Positions 4,180-16,065 of a stretch of DNA of 64,000 bases are shown piece after piece. A program made the translations under genes and the position numbers. The stretch's first letter is position 1, and the number at the start of each line of letters is the position of its first letter. The stretch spans positions 192,001 through 256,000 of the forward strand of contig CAWBKB010000004.1 in the NCBI GenBank assembly GCA_963789265.1. The letters are read 5' to 3'. The notes beneath the pieces were generated by a model. That model saw only the letters and a program-made list of their open reading frames with translations, made no database searches and was not told where the DNA came from. Source of the stretch: an uncultured delta proteobacterium. GTDB lineage: Bacteria; Desulfobacterota; Desulfomonilia; Desulfomonilales; Desulfomonilaceae.

Positions 4180-5445
4180 ATGAAAGCAAAAGAATCCTAC
4201 GCCGGATTCCCTCCACTCTCCGAAGTTGACCACATAGTGGAGGCTTTGGTCCACGATCCGCCCGATCGGCGATGGCGTATAGTGCGGGATTTATTCCGCA
4301 TTGACGACCGGGAGCGAACGCAGGAACTGATTACCAGGCTTCAACCGTACCTTTACCAAGTCGAAGATTTTCGGGTCAAATCACGTATAACCATAGCCTT
4401 GCAAGCGCTGCACCACCCGGGCGACACAGAGGGGTATCGGCTGATCAAGGGAAAGGGAGCTTTCCAAATGTCCGATCTTGAATCTTGCCGGGGCAAGCAA
4501 TCGGGACAGGAAGTCTTGCGGCACAACTTCGCTCCAGTCGTGGATTTTCATATTCATCCCAAAGTGCCGGATCTGAAATTATTTGCCGACCTGAGCCGGG
4601 CCGGGATCGCCTATGCGGTTATTCTCGCGACGGATACCGATCCCTCGGATGTTGACCGACCTGAAATCAGAGATGAGTTGCGAAAGGAATATTCGGGTTG
4701 TGCCCAATCGCATCGCCTGCCGTTCGACAAGGTGCTCGGACAAATAAGAGCAAGCCTCTATTCTCCGACTCATGTCACGAATCAGGACGTTGCAGACTGG
4801 GTAGAAGACTATCCGGACATTCTCTTCGGGTTCGGATCGGTAAACCTGTCGAAGGACAAATCGTACGTGGAGCGAAAACTCGAAGAGATCCAAGAGCTGA
4901 GGCTTCCGGGAATCAAGCTGCTGCCGTTTTCACAGTTCTTCAATCCTGCTGACAGTGAAAACGTTAATTTGCTCTTCGATTATTGCAGGCAGACCGGCTC
5001 CATCGTCCTCTCTCATACCGGCTGCGCCGCGGGACCGTTCGAGATCCTTGAACTGAGCCGGAATGCACATCCGGGAAATTGGGAACCGGTACTGAAAAAG
5101 TATCCGGACGTCCCCCTCGTCCTGGCCCATTGCGGATCGTACAGTAGTTATATTCCCGGAATTTGGCTCTATGAGGCCCTGCAAATGGGGAAGAAGTTCA
5201 GAAACGTTTTCGCAGACATAGCCGCGGTAGAATGGCTACTGGACCGGGAAACGGTCGTCAAAGAAATTCGAAAGACTATCGGATTCGATCGCATTCTTTT
5301 CGGCACGGATTACCCGTTGCCGCTTTCAGCAGGAGTAAGTATGGCCTATTTAGTCAGTGGGATTAAAGCAAATATTCTTCTGACTGAAAAGGAAAAGCGC
5401 AAAGTCCTGGGCGGAAACGCGGCTGAACTACTGGATATAGGATAA
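4180..5445 (+). CDS. Amidohydrolase_2-family metal-dependent hydrolase with an N-terminal helical extension of about 115 aa
   Basis: VDFHIH, GIKLLP, SHTG, VLAHCG and ILFGTDYP metal-ligand motifs. Confidence 0.85.
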   Translation: MKAKESYAGFPPLSEVDHIVEALVHDPPDRRWRIVRDLFRIDDRERTQELITRLQPYLYQVEDFRVKSRITIALQALHHPGDTEGYRLIKGKGAFQMSDLESCRGKQSGQEVLRHNFAPVVDFHIHPKVPDLKLFADLSRAGIAYAVILATDTDPSDVDRPEIRDELRKEYSGCAQSHRLPFDKVLGQIRASLYSPTHVTNQDVADWVEDYPDILFGFGSVNLSKDKSYVERKLEEIQELRLPGIKLLPFSQFFNPADSENVNLLFDYCRQTGSIVLSHTGCAAGPFEILELSRNAHPGNWEPVLKKYPDVPLVLAHCGSYSSYIPGIWLYEALQMGKKFRNVFADIAAVEWLLDRETVVKEIRKTIGFDRILFGTDYPLPLSAGVSMAYLVSGIKANILLTEKEKRKVLGGNAAELLDIG

Positions 5446-5487
5446 ACGGCAGAATGTGCCTTCCGGGTCTTTGTGAAAGGCGATTAA

Positions 5488-6325
5488 GTGGAACAAGGGG
5501 ATCTTACTAAGGAAATCACCGCATTAGCGGCGTTGCCGGACCACAGGATTGAGCTGGCTTCCGCAGCCCTCACCATCGCAAGGTCGGAATACCCGGATCT
5601 TGACGCATCGCGGTACGAAGAGCAGTTGAACGACATGGCCGCAACACTGAATCCAAGAATCCGGCAGATACCGACGTCGGAACGCGCACTCGATGAACTT
5701 AATAGCCTCATATTCAAGGAAGTCGGATTCCGCGGGAACCGCGATGATTACTACGATCCCAAAAACAGTTTCCTCAACGAGGTTCTTGACCGGAAACTCG
5801 GCATTCCTATCACTCTTTGCGTTGTTTACATGGAAGTGGGCAGGCGAGTAGGTCTGCCCCTTTACGGAATAGGTTTCCCGGGCCACTTCTTGACGGGTTC
5901 TGGTCACTGAAAAGAGCAGAGTTTTCATCGACCCGTTCAATGACGGGAAAATTCTCAGCGAAAGCGACCTTGTCAGGATGCTTCATGGTGGATTCGGCAG
6001 ATCGTTGCCTTTCAAGCAAAATCTCCTCGATCCGATGTGGCCCAAACAGATCTTGGTTAGGCTTCTGCGCAATTTGAAAGCCATTTATTGGCGCCGATCC
6101 CAATATTTAAGGGCGCTCCAGATGATCCAATGGATCTTAATCTTGAATCCGGATTCTGCCCCGGACCTTAAAGAGAGGGGGCTAATCTCTGAAGCCATAG
6201 GCGATATCCCAGGAGCAATCGAGGATCTTCAAAGATATTTGGAGCTCACCACCGCAGCGGAAGACGAACAGATCGTAAGAGCGACGATCGAGCGGCTGAA
6301 GAAGAGGAAGACTACGATTCATTGA
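5488..6325 (+). CDS. SirB1/YchA-family (transglutaminase-like core plus TPR) protein; one apparent +1 frameshift near 5899
   Basis: GFRGNRDDYYDPKNSFLNEVLDRKLGIPITL and FPGHFL, then in the shifted frame VFIDPFNDG, RLLRNLK and a TPR-like ERGL segment. Confidence 0.85.
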
Positions 6326-6747
6326 GGACTACCCATAATGGGAATAGACTAATAACGGTGCGAGAAATGGAAAGCGAAGAGCAAGATCTTCAAGAGCTGG
6401 AGAGAGCTAATCCAATTATACAGGTGGCCCTGGAGTTGGGCATCAAAGTCCGAGGCAGCGTGGGAAAGTGCTTCAAAGAGGACAGGCATGCCTCAGACGG
6501 TGTAAAGTCAACTCTCTTTTTCAACCCTGCGCGGAATAGGTTTCAGTGCCGAGACTGCGAGGACGTGGGGGGCACTGTTATAGATTTGGTGTGCCAGTAT
6601 AACGGATGGGAGAGACAAAAGGCCATAGAGTGGTTGCGTCACCGGGTGGAATTTGACCGGTACACAAAGGGTCTCTATCATGGAAAAGGGCGGAAAAAGC
6701 CGTCGGTCGCAAATGCAACGCAAACTGGGAAGGCAGAGGTAAGGTAA
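6322..6747 (+). CDS. Stand-alone CHC2-type zinc-finger protein (primase zinc-binding-domain-like); alternative start at ATG 6367
   Basis: C-x5-H...FQCRDC-x3-GGTVIDLV...AIEWL matches the primase ZBD pattern. No TOPRIM domain. Basic C-terminal tail. Confidence 0.75.
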   Translation: MRTTHNGNRLITVREMESEEQDLQELERANPIIQVALELGIKVRGSVGKCFKEDRHASDGVKSTLFFNPARNRFQCRDCEDVGGTVIDLVCQYNGWERQKAIEWLRHRVEFDRYTKGLYHGKGRKKPSVANATQTGKAEVR

Positions 6748-6752
6748 CAGGT

Positions 6753-8562
6753 ATGGGTTCCGAGTGGAATGCAGATGAAGAAAATCAAAGCCTCCCGAAG
6801 AATTCCACTGTCCGAGAGGTTGCTGAAGCAATTGTGAAGGAAGCGGAAGAGCACAGCCCACCTGAAGACACGCAGAGGAAAGACGAAATCGAGAAACGGA
6901 TACGGGAATCGGAGAAGAAACGACTCATGTTGGCCGAGGCGCTTCACTCTTCCAGAATAGAAATTCAGAGGCTTATGCCGGGCCGGGACAGGGACGCTGA
7001 TAGGGCTCTTCCGTTCGGAGTCTTTGTCCAGTACGGTCCGGATCGAGAGACTGTCGTTATAAAATACCACGGTCGGCTTCATGAAACGAAAGTGCTGCCC
7101 CAGGAACCGGGAACGGAAGACGAACCGGCAAAGGGAACTTTCCATGCCATACGACAGATCGGCAAGAAAAGGGATATTCGCCGAAGAGGGTTCAGGAAAG
7201 GGGAGTTGCTCCTACTTAACAATGACCTCCAGGTATTGGAACCGAGAGGATTTGACCTTGTTTGTGGAGGACTTGCTACTGTGCAGCAGATCCTCAGTGA
7301 GGAAAAGTTGCTGGTCAAAACGGTGGGCGATGAGAATCTCGTGGTGACGAGAGCAGCTCCCCTTTCACTCGTCAAAATAGTCATTGGCGACAAAATTGAA
7401 TACGACCACGAGTCTCTCTTCGCGTACGGGCTCCTCCCCAAGAGCGACGTGGATCGTTTGGCTCTGGAGAAGGTTCCTGACATTCACTATTCCGATATCG
7501 GGGGGCTCGAGGAAGCAGTCGAGTTGATTCGAGACGCCATCGAATTGCCGCACCTATACCCGGACTACTTCAAGGAGCATCGACTGGTCCCCCCGAAAGG
7601 GATTCTGCTCTACGGCCCCCCTGGATGCGGGAAAACGCTCCTTGCCAAGGCAGTGGCCAATAGCCTTGCAAAGCGAATTGAAGCGGAGACGGGGGAGCGA
7701 AAGGTAGGCTTCTTTCTCAACGTAAAGGGCCCGGAACTCCTCAATAAGTACGTCGGCGAAACTGAACAGGCTATCCGCGACTTGTTCGCCCGTGCCAGAA
7801 ACCAAGCCAGGCACCGCACTCCTGTAATAATCTTTTTTGATGAGATGGATTCCATGTTTCGGGTGAGAGGGTCCGGGATATCATCGGACATGGAAGCAAC
7901 GATTGTCCCGCAGTTCCTGGCCGAACTCGACGGCCTTGAACCTCTGGAAAACGTCGTAGTTATCGGAGCTACCAATCGAGAGGATCTTATCGACCCTGCC
8001 GTGCTAAGGCCCGGCCGCCTCGATCGCAAGATTCGAATTCCACGCCCAGAACGAGCGGCCGCACTCGAGATCTTTCCCAAGTACCTTGACTCCCGACCTT
8101 CCACTTGACCCTGTGCTCGTCGAACGCTGCGGAGATCCGGGCCGAGCCATAGACTGGCTCATTTCGACGTTGGTCGAGGAGCTGTACGGGATGACGAAGG
8201 AAAACGAACTCCTGGAAATAACTTATGCCGACGGAACTCAAACGATTCTGTATCTCAAGGATTTCGTGAGCGGAGCCATCATTGAACACATTGTCAACCG
8301 GGCAAAGCTGTCCGCGGTAAAAGATCTGGTCAACAGAGGGACAAGAGGTATCACTTTCGATCATCTGCAGACGGCGCTCCGTCGGGAATTCGAAGAAAAT
8401 GAGGATTTGCCCAGCAACACGAATCCAACGGAATGGTACCGGATAATAGGTTCAGGTGGAGACAGAGTAATCAGGATTCGCTCTTTATTCTGCAAGAGAG
8501 TCGCTATTTGCGAAGAACAGAAGCCTGGAGAGTTTTTGGAGGTAACCGACCGCCTCAAATAA
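6753..8562 (+). CDS. arc: ARC/Mpa-type AAA+ ATPase; apparent +1 frameshift near 8087
   Basis: N-terminal coiled coil, LEKVPDIHYSDIGGL, Walker A GPPGCGKT, FLNVKGPELLNKYVGETE, Walker B IIFFDEMD, R-G-S-G-I-S-S-D, and the Mpa-specific ENEDLPSNTNP. Confidence 0.93.
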
Positions 8563-8587
8563 ATGGGCTGAATATATGTGAGGGAGT

Positions 8588-10142
8588 ATGAGCATACCCA
8601 AGGTGGTTGGCATTGAAGAAGAATACGCAATCCACTTGCAAGGAGACCACGGTCTTACACCATTTCAGGCCTCCTGTGCACTCGTAAATTCGTACGCTCG
8701 CAAGGTAGGGCTGCGAGCACCTGGGATTAAACTGCTCTGGGATTACGGTCATGAGACGCCATTCCACGATTTTTCGCGGAGATCTCTTCGGAAAGAGTAC
8801 AGGCCAGGAAATCGTCTCCTCCGCAGAAAATCTTCGTCTTAACGCAGTGTTGCCCAACGGCGCCAGACTGTATACGGACCACGGGCACCCCGAATATTCG
8901 ACACCGGAGTGTCTGAGTGCCAGAAACGCGGTTGCTTGTGACAAAGCGGGGGAGCTGATTTTTCGGGAAGCTCTTGCCGCGGTGAGAGAATTGATGCCCC
9001 GGCTGAAGATCGGGCTGTTCAAGAACAACATCGACTATCAGGGGCACAGCTACGGGTGTCACGAGAACTACCTGATGGATGCGCGGGCACACGAAGAATG
9101 CTTCGTTCGCAGCCCGGAGAAAGCGGTGCGAATCCTGGTACCGTTTCTCGTCACTCGCCAGCTATTTGCGGGAACAGGCCGGGTCGGCTCAGCGAAGCCG
9201 CATGATCCATCGGTTCCGTACCGGATGTCGCAGCGGGCCGACTTTATCGAGACTATCTTCGGTTTGGAGACCATGTACTCGAGGCCCATTATCAACACCC
9301 GGGCAGAGCATCACGTGGATCCGAAACGTTTTCGGCGACTGCACTTGATCCTGGGTGACGCAAACATGAGCGAGTTCGCGGGCTTTCTCAAGATCGGCAG
9401 CACTCAAATAGTGCTACAGATGCTGGAAGACGGTTTCCTGACTGAAGACCTGACGCTCAAGGACCCGGTCAAGGCTATGCGAACGGTGGCGAAATTCGAC
9501 TCCCGGCTCGAACTGGCCGACGGTCGCACTATAAGTCCTCTGGATCTTCAGAGGCTGTTTCTGGCGGCAGCCAAACGGTACCATCGATCCGGGCACGGTT
9601 CTCAGGTACCTGATGCCGATCTGATTTTGCAAGCCTGGGCGTACGCTCTGGATGGATTGGAGAAACTCAGGCTTTCCGAAGACTTTGAGTTTGTGGAGGA
9701 CCCTCTGAACTTGAGCAAGCGTCTGGATTGGGTCATAAAACTGTGGTTGATTCATCGCTACCGAGAGAGCAAAGGGTGCTCGTGGGAAACCCAGGAGCTA
9801 AGTGTATTTGATCTGCAATATCACAACGTTGAACCTGACAGCGGCTTGTTCTGGCATCTTCAGAGTAAGGGCTTGGTTGATAGAATATTGGAGGACGATG
9901 AGATCTCGCGGGCAGTCAGAGAGGCTCCGCCCGACACCAGAGCCTACTTTCGCGGAAAGTGCATAGAAAAGTTCCCGAACGAGATCCACTTTGTTAACTG
10001 GGAAGTCGTGGGCTTCGATCACGGCGAAAGTCATCGCATGATACCGCTTCTCAACCCCCTGAAGGGCACCAGGGACCAATTCCGGGAAGTCTTTGAGATG
10101 TGCACGAATTCCAGGGAATTGGTGAAAATGGTCCAGGCATGA
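8588..10142 (+). CDS. dop: Depupylase/deamidase Dop; apparent +1 frameshift in a T-run near 8772
   Basis: VVGIEEEYAI, Dop-loop WDYGHETP, NGARLYTDHGHPEYSTPEC, SYGCHENYL, RRLHLILGDANMSE and PPDTRAYFRG. Confidence 0.9.
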
Positions 10143-10174
10143 ATGAGACTGATGGATCTGACTGGAGATAATTC

Positions 10175-10378
10175 ATGAGCGAATCTAGGCAGACACAAAT
10201 CCCTCAGAGGAAAAGAAGTAAGCAAAAGGACTCGACTGAAACAGAGACCTCGCTTCCGTCGATCTCCGGCGGAGAAAAGAAGCAGAAGCTTGAAGAGTTG
10301 GATGAGTTCATGGAAAGCGTGCTCCAAAAGGCAGGTGAAGAGTTCCTGGATGAGTTCAAACAGATTGAAGGGGAGTGA
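10175..10378 (+). CDS. pup: Pup-like prokaryotic ubiquitin-like protein with non-canonical C-terminus (QIEGE)
   Basis: 67 aa with a disordered N-terminal half and an acidic helical C-terminal half that aligns without gaps to the Pup C-terminus (VL-x4-E-x-F-x5-Q-x2-G-E). Lies between dop and pafA. RBS GGAG. Confidence 0.85.
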   Translation: MSESRQTQIPQRKRSKQKDSTETETSLPSISGGEKKQKLEELDEFMESVLQKAGEEFLDEFKQIEGE

Positions 10379-10381
10379 CAT

Positions 10382-11872
10382 TTGCAAACCCGGGTCTTCG
10401 GCACAGAGTGCGAGTATGCCCTGTTTTGCAGCCCCAGGGATGGGGAATCAAGAATCTATCTGGATGGCGAGCCGCTGCTGGAACATTTGAAAGGACTCAC
10501 ACCTTACCTAGTCGCTTCCTTGAAGGCCACAGGACGACCGTATGCCGGTGAGTTTCTGGGAAATGGAGGCCGGTTTTACATCGATCGCGGGGCGCATCCC
10601 GAGGACGCGACACCGGAATGTGCCAGGGTGAGGGATGTTGTCGCTCATGAAAAAGCGGGTGATCGAATCGTCCAGGAACTGGTCGAATTTGCCGGCTCAC
10701 ACATGGCCGAGGTCGGTAAGCGCGAAAAGATACGAATCTTCAAAAATAATGTGGATTCGTTCGGGAACACTTACGGCACTCACGAGAATTATCTCGTCAC
10801 GCCTCAAGCTATGGAAAACATCAGATTTATGGTTCCATTCCTGGTCAGTCGCCAGATATTTTCGGGTGCGGGCAAAGTGGCAACCGGGGGCACGCAGGGT
10901 CAAAGTTGGTATCAGTTGACTCAAAGGGCAGACTTTATCGACCGGATCTTCAGTGACAGAACGTCGCAGGTCCGCGGCATCATAAATCTTCGCAAACGGG
11001 AGATACCCAAACACGGACAAAACCTGCGGCTTCACCTCCTGGTTGGAGACTCCAACATGTCCGAGGACTCGCTCGGGCTAAGGGTTGGGACGACCGCCCT
11101 TGTACCAAGGCTGCTCGAAGAAGATTCTTTCGAGAATTTCCCGGCACTGGCATCCCCGGTAAAAGCCATGCGGGACATTTCCCAATCTTTTGGTAGCACT
11201 GTGGAACTCGAAAATCGCCGCCACCGATACCATGCTCTGGATATACAAGAAATCTATCTCAACAGAGTCCATAATTTCTTCGAAGATCACGAATCCAATA
11301 ATTGGGAAAAAGAAATCCTCGACCTTTGGAGACGTACGCTGGCAGGTCTGCGAGAAGTAAAAATATCGCACGAGAACTGGAACCTTGAGGATGACCCACA
11401 GGACTTGCACCGCAGAATCGACTGGCTCATCAAACTCTGGCTCATCAACAGGGTGCAGCACCAGAGCGGGCTCGATTGGCAAGATCCTCGACTGAGGCTG
11501 TTGGACGTGACATATCACGACCTCGATCCCCGAGAAGGCCTTTTCCAGAGGTGCCAGGATCTGGACCTGATTGACCGTATGGTAGACGAGCAGGAAATCC
11601 GCAAGGCCCAGACCAAACCACCGCAAGACACCCGGGCTTGGACCAGGGGCACCATTATCCAGCATGCCTGGGGGAGAAACGTCGAGACAATCGTCAAGAA
11701 CTGGGAAGCCGTTCAGATTATCGCAAAACCGCAGGGATGTGAGTCTTCTCACCCTTTCGGCAGACATCGGCGCATGGTCAATCGACTGGAAATAAAACTG
11801 GAAGATCCACTCAGGGCGGAGGACACAGCCGCTCTGGAAAAAGTGATGAAATTCGCTGAAGCTTGGAACTGA
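10382..11872 (+). CDS. pafA: Pup-protein ligase PafA
   Basis: MQTRVFGTECEY, FLGNGGRFYIDRGAHPE, KNNVDSFGNTYGTHENYL, RLHLLVGDSNMSE and PPQDTRA. TTG start 3 nt after the pup stop. Confidence 0.9.
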   Translation: MQTRVFGTECEYALFCSPRDGESRIYLDGEPLLEHLKGLTPYLVASLKATGRPYAGEFLGNGGRFYIDRGAHPEDATPECARVRDVVAHEKAGDRIVQELVEFAGSHMAEVGKREKIRIFKNNVDSFGNTYGTHENYLVTPQAMENIRFMVPFLVSRQIFSGAGKVATGGTQGQSWYQLTQRADFIDRIFSDRTSQVRGIINLRKREIPKHGQNLRLHLLVGDSNMSEDSLGLRVGTTALVPRLLEEDSFENFPALASPVKAMRDISQSFGSTVELENRRHRYHALDIQEIYLNRVHNFFEDHESNNWEKEILDLWRRTLAGLREVKISHENWNLEDDPQDLHRRIDWLIKLWLINRVQHQSGLDWQDPRLRLLDVTYHDLDPREGLFQRCQDLDLIDRMVDEQEIRKAQTKPPQDTRAWTRGTIIQHAWGRNVETIVKNWEAVQIIAKPQGCESSHPFGRHRRMVNRLEIKLEDPLRAEDTAALEKVMKFAEAWN

Positions 11873-12147
11873 TGCGCAGTCAAATGAGCGACAATCCTGG
11901 ATAAGATACGGTGGGGCAATCCTGCCCACGCGGGACTGCCTGTCCCGCGTTCCGCGGGATCACTCCGGACTTCGATTCGGGGGTAGCGCCGGCGTCCCTG
12001 CCGGCGATTCGCCAACAACCCCGCGTCCCGCGGGGAGGCCGGTCCTACTGGATGCCCGCGTATGCGGGCATGATGAAATGTAGGGGCGGGTTTCAAACCC
12101 GCCCCTACCAGAAACACGGTGTCACTTACTTGAAAGCCAGTCGGTAT
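11866..12147. repeat. Composite MITE-like repeat containing REP-type palindromes
   Basis: Shares ends and internal segments with 50378-50627. Its right part recurs inverted at about 18463-18530. Contains GTAGGGGCGGGTTTCAAACCCGCCCCTAC. Confidence 0.7.
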
Positions 12148-12175
12148 GAGACCCGGAAAGGTGCTTAGAAACGAT

Positions 12176-12876
12176 ATGGACCGGGAGATGGAACAAATTC
12201 CAGAGAATGCGACCGGTCGCGATGGAATCCGTCACGTTCTCTTAGTGCAATACGCACTTCACGAGGCAAACCATCATTCAGAGTCTGCCGGCAGTGCGGC
12301 GGATAGTTTCCCCACGGTCCCTAAGGCCCACACTCTTGCCGATATATACAAGTGCTTGCACCAGGGACAATTCGGGGTTGGGCACAGCATCGACGATCCG
12401 GTCAGGTTTGCCGGCAGGCTTGAACTTGAACTCGTCAAAGCCGACCCCGACTCTGCCGACCCGATTCTGGAAACGGTTTCCTCCGTGGCTCAGTTTTTCG
12501 TGTCAACCTGCGGCCGTTTCGACGGGCATTTGCGGGTCGCGACGAATTAGCGTCGCGTCTCTTGGTAGGGCTTTGCCTTAATTCCGCTACAAGGCAGAGG
12601 GGAACGATGAACGATTTCATCGAATCTCTGGAATGGTTTAGGGATTTGAACAACAGCGGAGAGTTGGCGGTTCAAGGCAGATCGTACATGTTCCCGAATG
12701 AGCAGGCAAACCGATTCGTAACCGAAGTGGCGTATTGCATTCATACGTTCGGAAATATACCGGTCTTGAGCCATTCATCGGTCTATAAGAAGCACAATTC
12801 CCCGTCCTACAGGGTGGTGGACCGAGAAGCCTTGGAACATTCGCCTTTGGCTTATCTTCTTAAAAAAATACAATGA
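12176..12876 (+). CDS. Conserved hypothetical protein; apparent frameshift near 12487
   Basis: The N-terminal part (DIYKCLHQGQFGVGH) joins the shifted-frame part (RVNLRPF...SHSSVYKKHNSPSYRVV). The stop overlaps the next ATG. Confidence 0.6.
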
Positions 12877-15056
12877 GTTGTATACACAAAGACAATACCT
12901 ATTGCTGTGCGGTGCTGCTTCAGCCGCCCCCAGGTGATCTAACCGGCCCGTATCCAGCTTTAGCATATCTGAAATCCTACGCTGCGCTGCATGGGCACAC
13001 AGTGCGGGTTCGGGACCTGGGGATCGAGGCTCTCCACTTTCTTACCCAAAAAGACAAGATTGCCGGCTACCTGGAGCGGGCAGCGTCCATGAGACGGGAA
13101 CTCGAATCCAAGGCCTCTCTGGATTCTGACGAGCTACGCCATTACAGACTGCTGGTTGTGGCTGCATGGATCGCGACCAAGCCGGACATGATCCCCACAG
13201 CTTTGAGATCTTTCAGTGACAGTAGCCAGTTTTACAACTATCGTCATTACAGTAGATCCTGCCACGTTCTCAACGCGTTCTACGGGTTGCTGTCCGCTGT
13301 TCATCATCCCACTGCGGTAACCCCGTCCGAATATCCCACGGCCCAGGCTCTCAATTCCATGAAAAACGTGCTTGCACACCGGCGCACGGATCTTAATCCG
13401 TACATGGAATACTACGAGGAGATTCTGTTTCCTGCACTTGCCGGACAGGCTCCCACAGCGATCGGTCTATCAATGGAATTCGCGGGGCAGTCGGTTCAAG
13501 CGCTGGTTCTTGGTCATCTGCTCAAGGAGCTGTTCCCTGAGATTCATATAACAATGGGAGGGGCTTATTTATCTCAATGGGTGATGTTGATGGGAGAAAG
13601 ACAGCTATCAGAGCTGTTTTCCTGTACCGACTCAGTAATCTGCGGGGAAGGCGAATCTGCCTTTGTGCAACTCTTGGACGGAATTGAAGCAGGCCTTTCG
13701 CCGTCGAGCGTTCCTAACCTGATTTATCGAGACTTACGTACCGGTGAGTTTCATCATCCTGCATCATTGGAATACCCCGATATTAATAGCCTTCCACCTC
13801 CCGACTTCTCAGACCTCGATCTGAAGTCATACCTCATTCCTAAAACGGTGATTCCCTATGCCATCAGTCGGGGATGTTACTGGGGCAAGTGCGTCTTTTG
13901 TCAGAACAGATACGGCGAGAACCGAATGCGCAAATACCAGACGGTGCCCGTGGAGAAGTCCATAGCCGAGATGTCTTACCTCGCCGAGAAATACGGCACC
14001 AACCACTTTAACTTCAGTAATGACGTTTTGGACCCTTCCTATTTGCAACGGCTGAGCGAAGCACTCATTGCGTCGAAGAAAAAGTTCTTGTGGAACACTG
14101 ACTTGCGTGCGGAAAAGGCGTTTTCCAGAGATCTCTGCGGCCGCATGGCCCGTGCAGGTCTGAACAGTGTCGCCATTGGACTCGAAAGCGGGTGCCAAAG
14201 AACCCTGGATGCAATGAACAAAGGCAAAGACGTTCAGACTGTGCGGCAGGTCATGAAAGACCTTTACGACGCTGGAATTGCAACTCAAGCCATGGGATTC
14301 TTTGGCTTTCCAGAGGAGACCGAAGAAGAGGCTGAAAGAACTGTGGCGTTCTTGGAGGACAACGTGGCCGCAATATCCTATTACGTCATCGGCCTGCTCA
14401 TGGTAGTTCCAGGTTCCAGAATGCATGAGGAGCCGCAGAAATACCGTGTATCATCAATTAGTTATGAGGGCAATGAACTGATGGCTCCGCCGCCTGTTTG
14501 GAGGGCGGAAGGAAGGATTCCGGCCGCGGCGGTGAATCGACTTTATCACCGGTTGAGTCATCTCGAAGAGACCTTCGCCATAAATGAATATCCGTACGTG
14601 GGGGCGCTTTCCACGAATCATTCGTTTCTGTACTTCGAGACGGGACCGGATGTGCTCAAAAGGCTAAAGAGGGAAGAAAGCGATCGGCATCTCAAGCTGC
14701 TTCGGATCATGGCAACCAAGGACAAGAGTGAAAGAGGAAAGAAGCTCAAGTCCCTACTGCCGCGATTCGCGCTTCCGTGTCTGATTTATCACACGCACTT
14801 TCTCATAGATCAGATTGAGAACGGCGATAAGACCACCCGCAGTCGTCCGCGCCCCTTCTCTCCCAACGGCTGGGATTATCTTGTGGGTCCGTCGGATATG
14901 GTAATTCCTATTCGAGAGGTTGAGAGGGGGTTTCTGGAGGCTATAGACGGCAAGAAGAATCTGAAATCAGTTTTGGCCAAGTATGAGGATGCTGACGTTG
15001 AGAGGCTTGTTTCGATCTTGTTGGGCCTCGTTTCCCGGGGCCTGATTGTCATTTAG
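12873..15056 (+). CDS. B12-binding-domain radical SAM protein
   Basis: PYPALAYLKS, SRGCYWGKCVFC (CxxxCxxC), IGLESG and FFGFPEET. Possible winged-helix/PqqD-like C-terminal domain. Confidence 0.88.
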   Translation: MSCIHKDNTYCCAVLLQPPPGDLTGPYPALAYLKSYAALHGHTVRVRDLGIEALHFLTQKDKIAGYLERAASMRRELESKASLDSDELRHYRLLVVAAWIATKPDMIPTALRSFSDSSQFYNYRHYSRSCHVLNAFYGLLSAVHHPTAVTPSEYPTAQALNSMKNVLAHRRTDLNPYMEYYEEILFPALAGQAPTAIGLSMEFAGQSVQALVLGHLLKELFPEIHITMGGAYLSQWVMLMGERQLSELFSCTDSVICGEGESAFVQLLDGIEAGLSPSSVPNLIYRDLRTGEFHHPASLEYPDINSLPPPDFSDLDLKSYLIPKTVIPYAISRGCYWGKCVFCQNRYGENRMRKYQTVPVEKSIAEMSYLAEKYGTNHFNFSNDVLDPSYLQRLSEALIASKKKFLWNTDLRAEKAFSRDLCGRMARAGLNSVAIGLESGCQRTLDAMNKGKDVQTVRQVMKDLYDAGIATQAMGFFGFPEETEEEAERTVAFLEDNVAAISYYVIGLLMVVPGSRMHEEPQKYRVSSISYEGNELMAPPPVWRAEGRIPAAAVNRLYHRLSHLEETFAINEYPYVGALSTNHSFLYFETGPDVLKRLKREESDRHLKLLRIMATKDKSERGKKLKSLLPRFALPCLIYHTHFLIDQIENGDKTTRSRPRPFSPNGWDYLVGPSDMVIPIREVERGFLEAIDGKKNLKSVLAKYEDADVERLVSILLGLVSRGLIVI

Positions 15057-15140
15057 CTGGATGCTGAAAATTCGGAAATTGGGCCAAGGCTTTCGCCTGA
15101 CTGGGGAGGCTGAGATAGCGCGGCCGCGAAGGAGTCAAAA

Positions 15141-15823
15141 ATGTTGGTAAAAAGATGGATGAGCAAGGACGTGATCTCAATAGATCCCGACGATTCTATG
15201 CAACTGGCAGTTAATCTCATGAAAGAGCACGATATCCGGCTACTTCCTATCATGAAAGACAATAAGCTGGTGGGGGTTCTTAGTGATGGCGACCTGAAAA
15301 AGGCTTCAGTGACAAACGCCGTGGATTTTGACGTGAAGGATCTTTTGTACAGATCTGTACAAAACCAAAATAAGAGATATCATGACGCGGGATCCTTTTA
15401 CCATTCCCATGGACGAGACAGTTGACGAGGCCGCCGCGGTACTCTTGAAGAACAAGATTTCTGGAGCACCGGTGGTCGACCGTAAAGGCACAGTGGTGGG
15501 CGTGATAACTCAGTCTGATATCTTCAGGGTTTTGATTTCCTTGACCGCGATGGGAACCCGCGGGATTCAATTCGCATTCCATGTGAAAGACACACCTGGT
15601 GCGGTCACGAAACTCATTGATATATTCCGCAATTATGGAGGTCGCACCGCAAGCGTTCTCAGCTCGTATGAAAATGCACCTCCGGGTCACCGGAATGTAT
15701 ATATAAGAACTTTCAATTTGGATCGCGGCAAGCTTGCACAAGTGATGCAAGAAACTAAAAGAAAAGGCGACCATGCTCTACATGGTCGATCACCGTGAAA
15801 AAAGGCGGGAAATCTTCGAATAA
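15141..15823 (+). CDS. CBS-pair plus ACT domain protein (AcuB-like); two apparent +1 frameshifts (about 15351 and 15753)
   Basis: MLVKRWMSKDVISI, MTRDPFTI...VVGVITQSDIF and ACT DTPGAV. The corrected frame ends ...REIFE at TAA 15821-15823. Confidence 0.8.
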
Positions 15824-15863
15824 ACGGAAGTGGGCAGTGTAACTGCTCAGCAGGCAGTACAGA

Positions 15864-16065
15864 TTAACCGCAGAGCGCGCCGAGAACGCGGAGAATTCTG
15901 TTTTCGCGGCACGTTTATCCGATGGAGCACGGTAAATTCTGGTCTGTGATTATACGGCAGTAAGGGCGACCGGCCGTCGCCCTGGGCGAATACCATTCGC
16001 CCCTACCGGCCCTGGATTGGCGTCCAGGGCCAGAGGGTTGAATTCTCCGCGGTCTCTGCGGTGAA
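15864..16065. repeat. REP-like palindromic intergenic repeat cluster
   Basis: Outer inverted repeats ACCGCAGAG...CGCGGAGAATTC and GAATTCTCCGCGGTCTCTGCGGT enclose GGGCGAATACCATTCGCCCCTAC, which also occurs at about 34856. Confidence 0.65.

Follow-up and report, generated by a model that had tools for sequence, protein, structure and literature searches.

A conserved Pup-type tag with glutamate at position -3, encoded in a proteasome-less operon of Thermodesulfobacteriota-type bacteria

The window, by which we mean the whole 64,000-nucleotide stretch of DNA analyzed here, encodes a small Pup-like tag that ends in KQIEGE and is located directly between a Dop-type gene and a PafA-type gene. The tag is a real, conserved, and lineage-specific variant of Pup in a proteasome-less operon, and we infer that it is conjugated to other proteins. 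We consider it probable, at roughly 80%, that the tag is genuine and functional, that it is one of the intrinsically disordered tags of the Pup superfamily, and that it represents a subfamily not described before which, as far as sampled, is confined to Thermodesulfobacteriota-type bacteria.

Pup is conjugated by PafA, which joins the γ-carboxylate of the terminal Glu to target lysines through an isopeptide bond. A di-glycine before the terminal Glu or Gln is usually taken as the hallmark of Pup, and the C-terminal rule for UBact is R[ST]G[EQ]. The genes of the operon under study, and their arrangement in the window, were as follows.

5488-6325, + strand: transglutaminase-like plus TPR (SirB1-like) gene, split into 5488-5910 and 5978-6325; one 278-aa ORF in relatives
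6322-6747, + strand: conserved 141-aa protein just upstream of the ATPase, with sub-threshold likeness to a CHC2 (DnaG-type) zinc ribbon
6753-8562, + strand: Mpa/ARC-type AAA ATPase gene, split in the window into 6753-8108 and 8086-8562; product ends in ...VTDRLK
8588-10142, + strand: Dop-type depupylase/deamidase gene, in two frames in the window (8588-8842 and 8751-10142); Dop-loop present
10175-10378, + strand: Pup-like tag gene, 67 aa, C-terminus KQIEGE; family signature [KR]Q[IVLM]EG[EQ]
10382-11872, + strand: PafA-type ligase gene, 496 aa, TTG start; no Dop-loop, GTECE and YIDRG..HPEY boxes
12146-12876, + strand: conserved protein of about 243 aa, split in the window into 12146-12550 and 12562-12876, apparently by another indel
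12873-15056, + strand: B12-binding radical SAM enzyme, 727 aa; NCBIfam likeness below cut-off

Conservation of the tag gene and its C-terminal ending

The tag gene (10175-10378, + strand) started with ATG and comprised 67 codons, its translation ending in ...LDEFMESVLQKAGEEFLDEFKQIEGE before the stop and the ORF in ...EEFLDEFKQIEGE-TGA. A GGAGA box resembling a Shine-Dalgarno sequence was located 8 nt 5' of the start, and the stop was followed after 4 nt by the TTG start of the PafA-type gene. When 5.8 billion protein clusters were searched, 20 proteins of 64-70 aa were obtained (the query and 19 relatives), and E65, G66, and E67 were invariant in the alignment of all 20. Scanning one genome per prokaryotic species yielded 14 loci with a tag, 12 of them ending in EGE ([IVL]EGE) and two in VEGQ; the tags of two further genomes of the phylum (L021 and L022) ended in VEGE. 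When 1.84 billion cluster representatives were searched with a HMMER profile, nine clusters were obtained, all of the EG[EQ] tag family, whose representatives comprised seven ending in EGE, one in EGQ (P0024), and one frameshifted copy that diverged after about residue 48. All intact members combined a length of 64-70 aa, within the 50-90 residues set for Pup by Iyer et al. (2008), with a G-E or G-Q end, and all of them carried Glu at -3 in place of the first Gly of the di-glycine. The sequence-only reading had asked whether the ending would recur in the small ORFs of relatives, and this proved to be so. The alternation of E and Q at the last residue is the pattern that a reactive terminal side chain would lead one to expect.

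Across loci, Glu at -3 was encoded by GAA 13 times and by GAG twice, Gly at -2 by GGG, GGA, GGC, or GGT, and the last residue by GAG, GAA, or CAA, such that the codon changes at -3 and -2 were synonymous. A 660-nt contig from a public soil-metagenome run (X1), which may be the sample behind the window assembly, spanned 10055-10714 with no gap and one difference, the latter outside the tag ORF. The tag ORF and its EG[EQ] ending are therefore real and under selection. No RNA run carrying the window sequence was present among the eight public runs found.

Relationship of the tag to Pup and UBact

Homology to Pup was detected by profile methods, with the C-termini in register. A profile search of the PDB aligned family positions 10-67 end to end with residues 8-68 of Mycobacterium tuberculosis Pup (3m9d_G) at an E-value of 0.59, placing VLqkAGeEFLDeFkQvEGE opposite VLEENAEDFVRAYVQKGGE. 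With hhalign, the family and an 18-row Pup alignment matched over 44 columns ending at both C-termini (probability 81.3%, E 1.2e-5). Both alignments reproduced the gapless match to the Pup C-terminus that had been proposed from the window alone. BLASTP to one canonical Pup gave an E-value of 0.002, and the nearest protein-language-model neighbors beyond the family's own cluster were Pup clusters (0.88 and 0.85), which we took as a lead only. The residues kept in register with Pup were V-L, E-E-F, Gln at -5, Gly at -2, and Glu/Gln at -1, and those changed were Gly to Glu at -3 and Lys/Arg to I/V/L/M at -4. The case for homology has a limit in that it consists of profile-profile and weak pairwise scores, and these cover some 45 residues of an acidic, helical peptide of low complexity.

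Curated models passed over the family. The window tag (P0001) matched neither Pup nor UBact at E≤10 (Pfam PF05639 and PF20513, NCBIfam TIGR03687 and NF033388), and the Pfam Pup model found nothing in the six frames of the whole source genome. Four of the 20 members were matched by PF05639 below its cut-off, the best at an E-value of 0.0076, and P0024 scored 16.6 bits against the curated Pup model (cut-off 27). The UBact models matched none of the 20 members at E≤1, and none of P0001, P0024, and P0026 at E≤10; no family member reached the threshold of any curated Pup or UBact model. The same models recognized the control tags, with 55-76 bits for two canonical Pups of the same phylum (L034 and L035) and 77-84 bits for two UBacts ending in RTGE (L085 and L092). 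The HMMER search of 1.84 billion representatives revealed no bridge from the tag family to Pup or UBact. Between the family and the sole UBact-type tag of the phylum, hhalign matched no more than the final 8 residues (probability 0.5%). This comparison involved one UBact sequence, as a word-based search with that tag returned a single relative and gave no UBact alignment. The ending of the family, [IVLM]EG[EQ], departed from R[ST]G[EQ], and by sequence the body of the tag protein resembles Pup, not UBact.

Iyer, Burroughs and Aravind (2008) gave the signature of Pup orthologs loosely as G[EQ] (PMC2588565). Because that signature already admits EG[EQ], the tag is to be regarded as a variant of Pup and not as a new kind of tag. 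A full-text literature search, which covered neither the UBact paper of 2017 nor the supplementary alignment of Iyer 2008, turned up no EG[EQ] variant of Pup and no account of pupylation in taxa with Desulfo- names.

The neighboring Dop-type and PafA-type enzymes

Both neighbors of the tag gene belonged to the Pup_ligase family (PF03136), with 438 bits for the upstream and 378 bits for the downstream gene, and they formed the only such pair in the source genome. Among NCBIfam models, Dop scored best for the upstream enzyme and PafA for the downstream one. The shortened Dop ORF of the window scored 403 against TIGR03688 (cut-off 492), and the window PafA scored 331 against the TIGR03686 equivalog (cut-off 551); since the latter is below its cut-off, the window PafA is a divergent member. 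The invariant residues G7, E9, E11, and D68 in 14 sequences indicated that the G-h-E-x-E and Asp boxes were retained, and Asp68 of the YIDRG..HPEY box is presumably, by its motif, the catalytic Asp of PafA. A loop of 40-65 residues before strand β2 with a conserved Trp is found in all Dop and never in PafA (PMC8599861). The upstream paralogs shared this insertion and an LWDY..E.P motif with three canonical Dop proteins, and the downstream paralogs were without it. In the window, the Dop-loop stretch is also the site of the Dop frameshift.

A quick ligase-family tree (LG+G4) was built from 29 rows, only seven of which were canonical rows from the phylum. The 10 Dop and 10 PafA proteins linked to EG[EQ] tags formed one clade each (SH-aLRT 96 and 99), and the tree joined these two clades against the canonical enzymes. 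An alternative tree with all Dop rows in one clade was not rejected (p-AU 0.377), which leaves one-to-one orthology of the EG[EQ]-type Dop and PafA with the canonical enzymes compatible with the data, although the tree obtained groups them otherwise. Trp353 and Arg357 (PafA numbering) were common to both EG[EQ]-type enzymes and different in seven of seven canonical rows.

Predicted complex of the ligase and the tag

We co-folded the window PafA (14-row alignment) with the tag (20 rows), alongside three controls. The PafA-tag complex scored 0.86, and the best control scored 0.02; the complex passed a score mark that 116 of 157 solved complexes and 2 of 215 mismatched pairs attain. Contact agreement among the PafA-tag runs was at least 93%, and the pLDDT of the partner at least 59. 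The predicted interface involved tag residues 38-67, with the tail placed at residues 11, 13, 68, 70-72, and 125-134 of the catalytic boxes of PafA. Trp353 and Arg357 fell within this predicted interface, where Arg357 contacted tag residues 42, 43, and 46. Because PafA-Pup and Dop-Pup complexes have already been solved (4BJR, 7OXY), the good score may stem from resemblance to these structures instead of from binding by the window copy itself. Along with the Dop-loop-bearing and loop-less neighbors and the remote homology to Pup, the predicted complex supports the original assignment of the ORF as a Pup-like tag.

The operon, its ATPase, and the proteasome

The ATPase, Dop, tag, and PafA genes were found together in all 16 loci with an EG[EQ] tag examined for gene content. 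The 243-aa protein was encoded directly after PafA in 15 of the 16, the B12-radical SAM enzyme was present in 14, and the 141-aa protein preceded the ATPase in 14. These three additional genes set the EG[EQ] operon apart from Pup-ligase loci with other tags, being present in none of the five such loci compared. The tag forms a tight family with an operon of its own and with separate clades of Dop and PafA, and it thereby stands as the distinct subfamily that had been suspected. The tag gene was flanked directly by Dop and PafA in 14 of 16 loci, one gene being inserted between Dop and the tag in L041 and L042. These two genomes belong to another family of the phylum, and the inserted 655-aa ORF (L041:7591-9558, also in L042) upstream of an EGE tag gene looks, by eye, like an AMP-forming acetyl-CoA synthetase.

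The two pieces of the window ATPase scored 448.8 and 131 bits against TIGR03689. Proteasomal ATPases dock through a GQYL-type C-terminus with a G-x-Y-L ending (PMC8223512). This ending was absent from 12 EG[EQ]-type ATPases, which terminated in unrelated sequences such as ...DRLK, ...DRFK, and ...GLA, whereas the ATPases of two proteasome-linked loci of the phylum ended in GQYL and GEYL. No 20S proteasome genes were found in the source genome (6.06 Mb, 95.6% complete), its sole PF00227 match being HslV. Scanning 11 of the 14 genome loci with Pfam gave no proteasome family either; the ORFs of L003, L008, L010, L011, L013, L041, and L042 were outside the scan.

The 243-aa protein (L002:8365-9096 in locus L002) carried invariant His, Cys, and Tyr positions, as in the LHE..HH and YKCLHQGEFG.GH stretches. 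Its fold was predicted with a pLDDT of 86.9 and a pTM of 0.83. It matched no Pfam or NCBIfam model and, at E≤0.001, no PDB entry by Foldseek, and its best VIA-align Z of 6.0 is within the range of that tool for unrelated helical models. The best NCBIfam likeness of the radical SAM enzyme was to RiPP-maturation C-methyltransferases, at 129.8 bits against a cut-off of 281.85.

Frameshifts in the window

A 7.5-kb part of the window held four genes that were split in comparison with locus L002, which is 91% identical, namely those of the ATPase, Dop, the 243-aa protein, and the transglutaminase-TPR protein. The extra base at 8084 in the ATPase gene is an assembly error, since it was absent from the otherwise identical X1 contig, and it was absent from X3 and X4 as well. 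At about 8771, an extra T in a T run (T5) split Dop; X1 did not cover this site, and X4, a relative's contig, was one base shorter there. The shift at about 12485-12560, which split the 243-aa gene, was covered by relatives' contigs only, and the transglutaminase-TPR gene was interrupted by a gap at 5910-5978. These other shifts are probably assembly errors too, which suggests that the window is a long-read assembly with residual indels.

Proposed mechanism and alternative explanations

By analogy with known pupylation, the conjugation of the tag, its chemistry, and its consequence may be pictured as follows. The C-terminal 30 or so residues of the tag would become helical on entering the groove of the PafA-type ligase encoded next to it, bringing the tail ...Q-[IVLM]-E-G-E into the active site. 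The upstream Dop-type enzyme would strip the tag off and, in EGQ lineages, would first deamidate Gln to Glu. The sequence-only reading had confined Dop to depupylation on the ground that a terminal Glu needs no deamidation; the ground is sound and holds for tags such as that of the window, but the conclusion is too narrow for the family, as Dop must deamidate in those relatives that end in EGQ. Tagged proteins would then be recognized by the Mpa/ARC-type ATPase. Proteasomal degradation appears a less likely outcome than unfolding, remodeling, or regulation of the kind seen in Corynebacterium, or than transfer to a so far unknown partner, because 20S genes were not found and the ATPase lacks the proteasome-docking tail.

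Two explanations would attribute the observations to errors or decay of the sequence. A single transition (GAA to GGA) would suffice to turn a true GGE end of an ordinary Pup into the one observed, but a base-call error has practically no chance of being correct. E65 was invariant in 20 of 20 proteins, 14 of 14 loci, eight of eight intact cluster representatives, and L021 and L022, and it was encoded by both GAA and GAG. The invariant ending of intact relatives, the synonymous codons, and the identical ORF on the X1 contig together exclude the error, a possibility that the sequence-only reading had itself raised. It is also conceivable that the frameshifts are real and that the locus is decaying in the source genome, the tag gene being an intact but functionless leftover. 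Four genes are indeed split relative to a 91%-identical locus, and the shifts at 8771 and 12485-12560 were covered by contigs of relatives, not of the same strain. We nevertheless regard decay as highly unlikely, given that the extra base at 8084 was missing from X1, X3, and X4, that the shifts consist of one extra base each, in one case within a T5 run, as is typical of errors in long-read assembly, and that all four genes were intact in L002 and most other loci.

The remaining explanations concern what the protein does. It might never be conjugated and act instead in unattached form, regulating the ATPase or serving as its adaptor, or it might be a RiPP-like precursor for the B12-radical SAM enzyme two genes downstream, its likeness to Pup being ancestral only. 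The co-occurrence of the radical SAM gene in 14 of 16 loci, the RiPP-maturation enzymes nearest to its product (although far below the cut-off), and the sub-threshold scores of all curated Pup models could be read in this manner. Yet the tag was always located between Dop and PafA and never adjoined the radical SAM gene, its last residue alternated between E and Q exactly as in Pup, the predicted complex put its tail in the ligase active site, and a complete ligase, a Dop-loop depupylase, and an ATPase were conserved alongside it, all of which makes an unconjugated protein distinctly unlikely. A more elaborate proposal accepts conjugation and goes further: the EG[EQ] tag would mark a separate, proteasome-independent pathway of anaerobic Thermodesulfobacteriota, in which the 243-aa, B12-radical SAM methyltransferase-like, and 141-aa zinc-ribbon-like partners act on the tag or on tagged proteins (e.g. 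by radical SAM modification of the tag or the isopeptide), and Glu at -3 would confer specificity, being recognized by a co-evolved Dop and PafA pair with the family-specific Trp353 and Arg357 in the predicted interface. As a whole this proposal is unlikely, and we favor the plainer reading of a functional Pup-superfamily tag that forms its own subfamily.

Comparison with known systems

The system was closest in plan to the arc-dop-pupE-pafA locus of Corynebacterium glutamicum. In both, dop and pafA flank the tag gene, an Mpa/ARC ATPase is encoded upstream, the terminal Glu needs no deamidation, and proteasome genes were not found. As in the tag of that locus and actinobacterial Pup in general, the N-terminal half of the tag was basic and of low complexity, and the C-terminal half was helical and acidic. 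Its last 25 or so residues aligned with actinobacterial Pup without gaps, sharing V-L, E-[ED]-F, Q at -5, G at -2, and E/Q at -1. It differed from actinobacterial Pup in having Glu, not Gly, at -3 and I/V/L/M, not K/R, at -4, in falling below the thresholds of the Pfam and NCBIfam Pup models, and in its host, a Thermodesulfobacteriota-type MAG. Pupylation without a proteasome has been described for Corynebacterium, with ferritin as a target (PMC8223512).

UBact (PF20513, NF033388), a Pup homologue of several Gram-negative phyla, is likewise a Pup-family tag outside Actinobacteria that is encoded after dop. It shares with the EG[EQ] tags a non-Gly residue at -3 and a G-[E/Q] end, as in the examples L085 and L092 (YRQRTGE) and L036 (YKQRSGE), but the EG[EQ] tags match no UBact model and have a Pup-like body. 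In the UBact-type locus L036, two ORFs between the tag and PafA were of proteasome-subunit size, a likeness by size alone. The Pup/ligase pairs of Plesiocystis and Rhodopirellula also combine a tag and a ligase outside Actinobacteria, with a deltaproteobacterial host by the former classification, and they are not linked to proteasome genes (PMC2588565). Their ligases, in the same account, differ by a four-helix membrane insertion and a linked membrane protein, whereas the EG[EQ] loci encode an ordinary soluble-type Dop and PafA with an ATPase.

Against this background the advance is incremental, as the 2008 definition G[EQ] admits EG[EQ] and UBact already has a non-Gly residue at -3. What is added is a natural, conserved Pup-type tag with Glu at -3, encoded by a gene that current Pfam and NCBIfam models miss. 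It extends Pup-type tagging, inferred as conjugation is here, to Thermodesulfobacteriota-type anaerobes in which proteasome genes were not found, and it ties a Pup-type system to three conserved genes of unexplained role. The family also offers a natural experiment on the requirements of PafA and Dop at -3 and -4.

There is a practical consequence for proteomics. The standard signature of pupylation is a GGE remnant of +243.09 Da on lysine. The tryptic remnant of EG[EQ]-family tags would be QIEGE (+556.249 Da) or QVEGE (+542.234 Da), and routine proteome searches would miss the conjugates because this remnant replaces GGE. The corresponding pyro-Glu remnants would have masses of 539.223 and 525.207. 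The masses given for the window tag and for Pup in the sequence-only reading agreed with our recalculation (QIEGE 556.2493, GGE 243.0855).

Distribution of the tag family

The family was seen only in Thermodesulfobacteriota-type MAGs, and in four of 401 sampled genomes of the phylum. The hosts of the 14 genome loci, all of them MAGs, were labeled delta proteobacterium, Thermodesulfobacteriota, Desulfomonilaceae, Desulfarculaceae, Desulfatiglandales, Desulfobacterales, Deferrisomatales, or similar. Pup_ligase genes were present in 11 of the 401 genomes, and the EG[EQ] tag in four of these 11. The other seven genomes provided four tags, ending in QRGGQ, QKGGE, QRSGE, and QRGGE; one held a doubtful candidate, one gave no tag (contig end), and for one the analysis covered a lone ligase region only. 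The doubtful candidate (L038:4477-4797) ended in PPGQ and accompanied a divergent Pup-ligase pair of the phylum. An 80-aa tag ending in SRQRGGE (L039:6715-6957), beside another divergent Pup-ligase pair, was recognized by no Pup or UBact model.

A mixed Dop alignment retrieved 80 metagenome loci, 56 of which had a tag downstream of Dop. These tags, beside other Dop genes, ended in [KR]GG[EQ] in 54 cases and RTGE in two, and none ended in EG[EQ]. Together with the failure of Pup and UBact models on the window tag and their success on control tags, this count agrees with the earlier description of the ending as neither GG[EQ] nor R[ST]G[EQ]. For 24 of the 80 loci a tag was not found, partly as contigs end. 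Several of the top-scoring Dop loci, L045-L050, had no tag within 1.2 kb. The metagenome locus L054 (311-6477) encoded Mpa (ending in GQYL), Dop, PrcB, PrcA, and PafA in this order, with a gap of only 25 nt between Dop and PrcB and no tag ORF in the usual slot.

Repeats downstream of the ligase gene

The intergenic stretch between the PafA and 243-aa genes (11873-12145) was GC-rich and built of hairpin repeats. An Rfam search of 5000-16000 gave no match at E≤0.1, and an 85-aa ORF over the hairpin repeats (11911-12168) is probably spurious. The core palindrome (12080-12110) was found in contigs of all four metagenome runs at a depth of 54-256 with many loose ends, and it is therefore a widespread short repeat.
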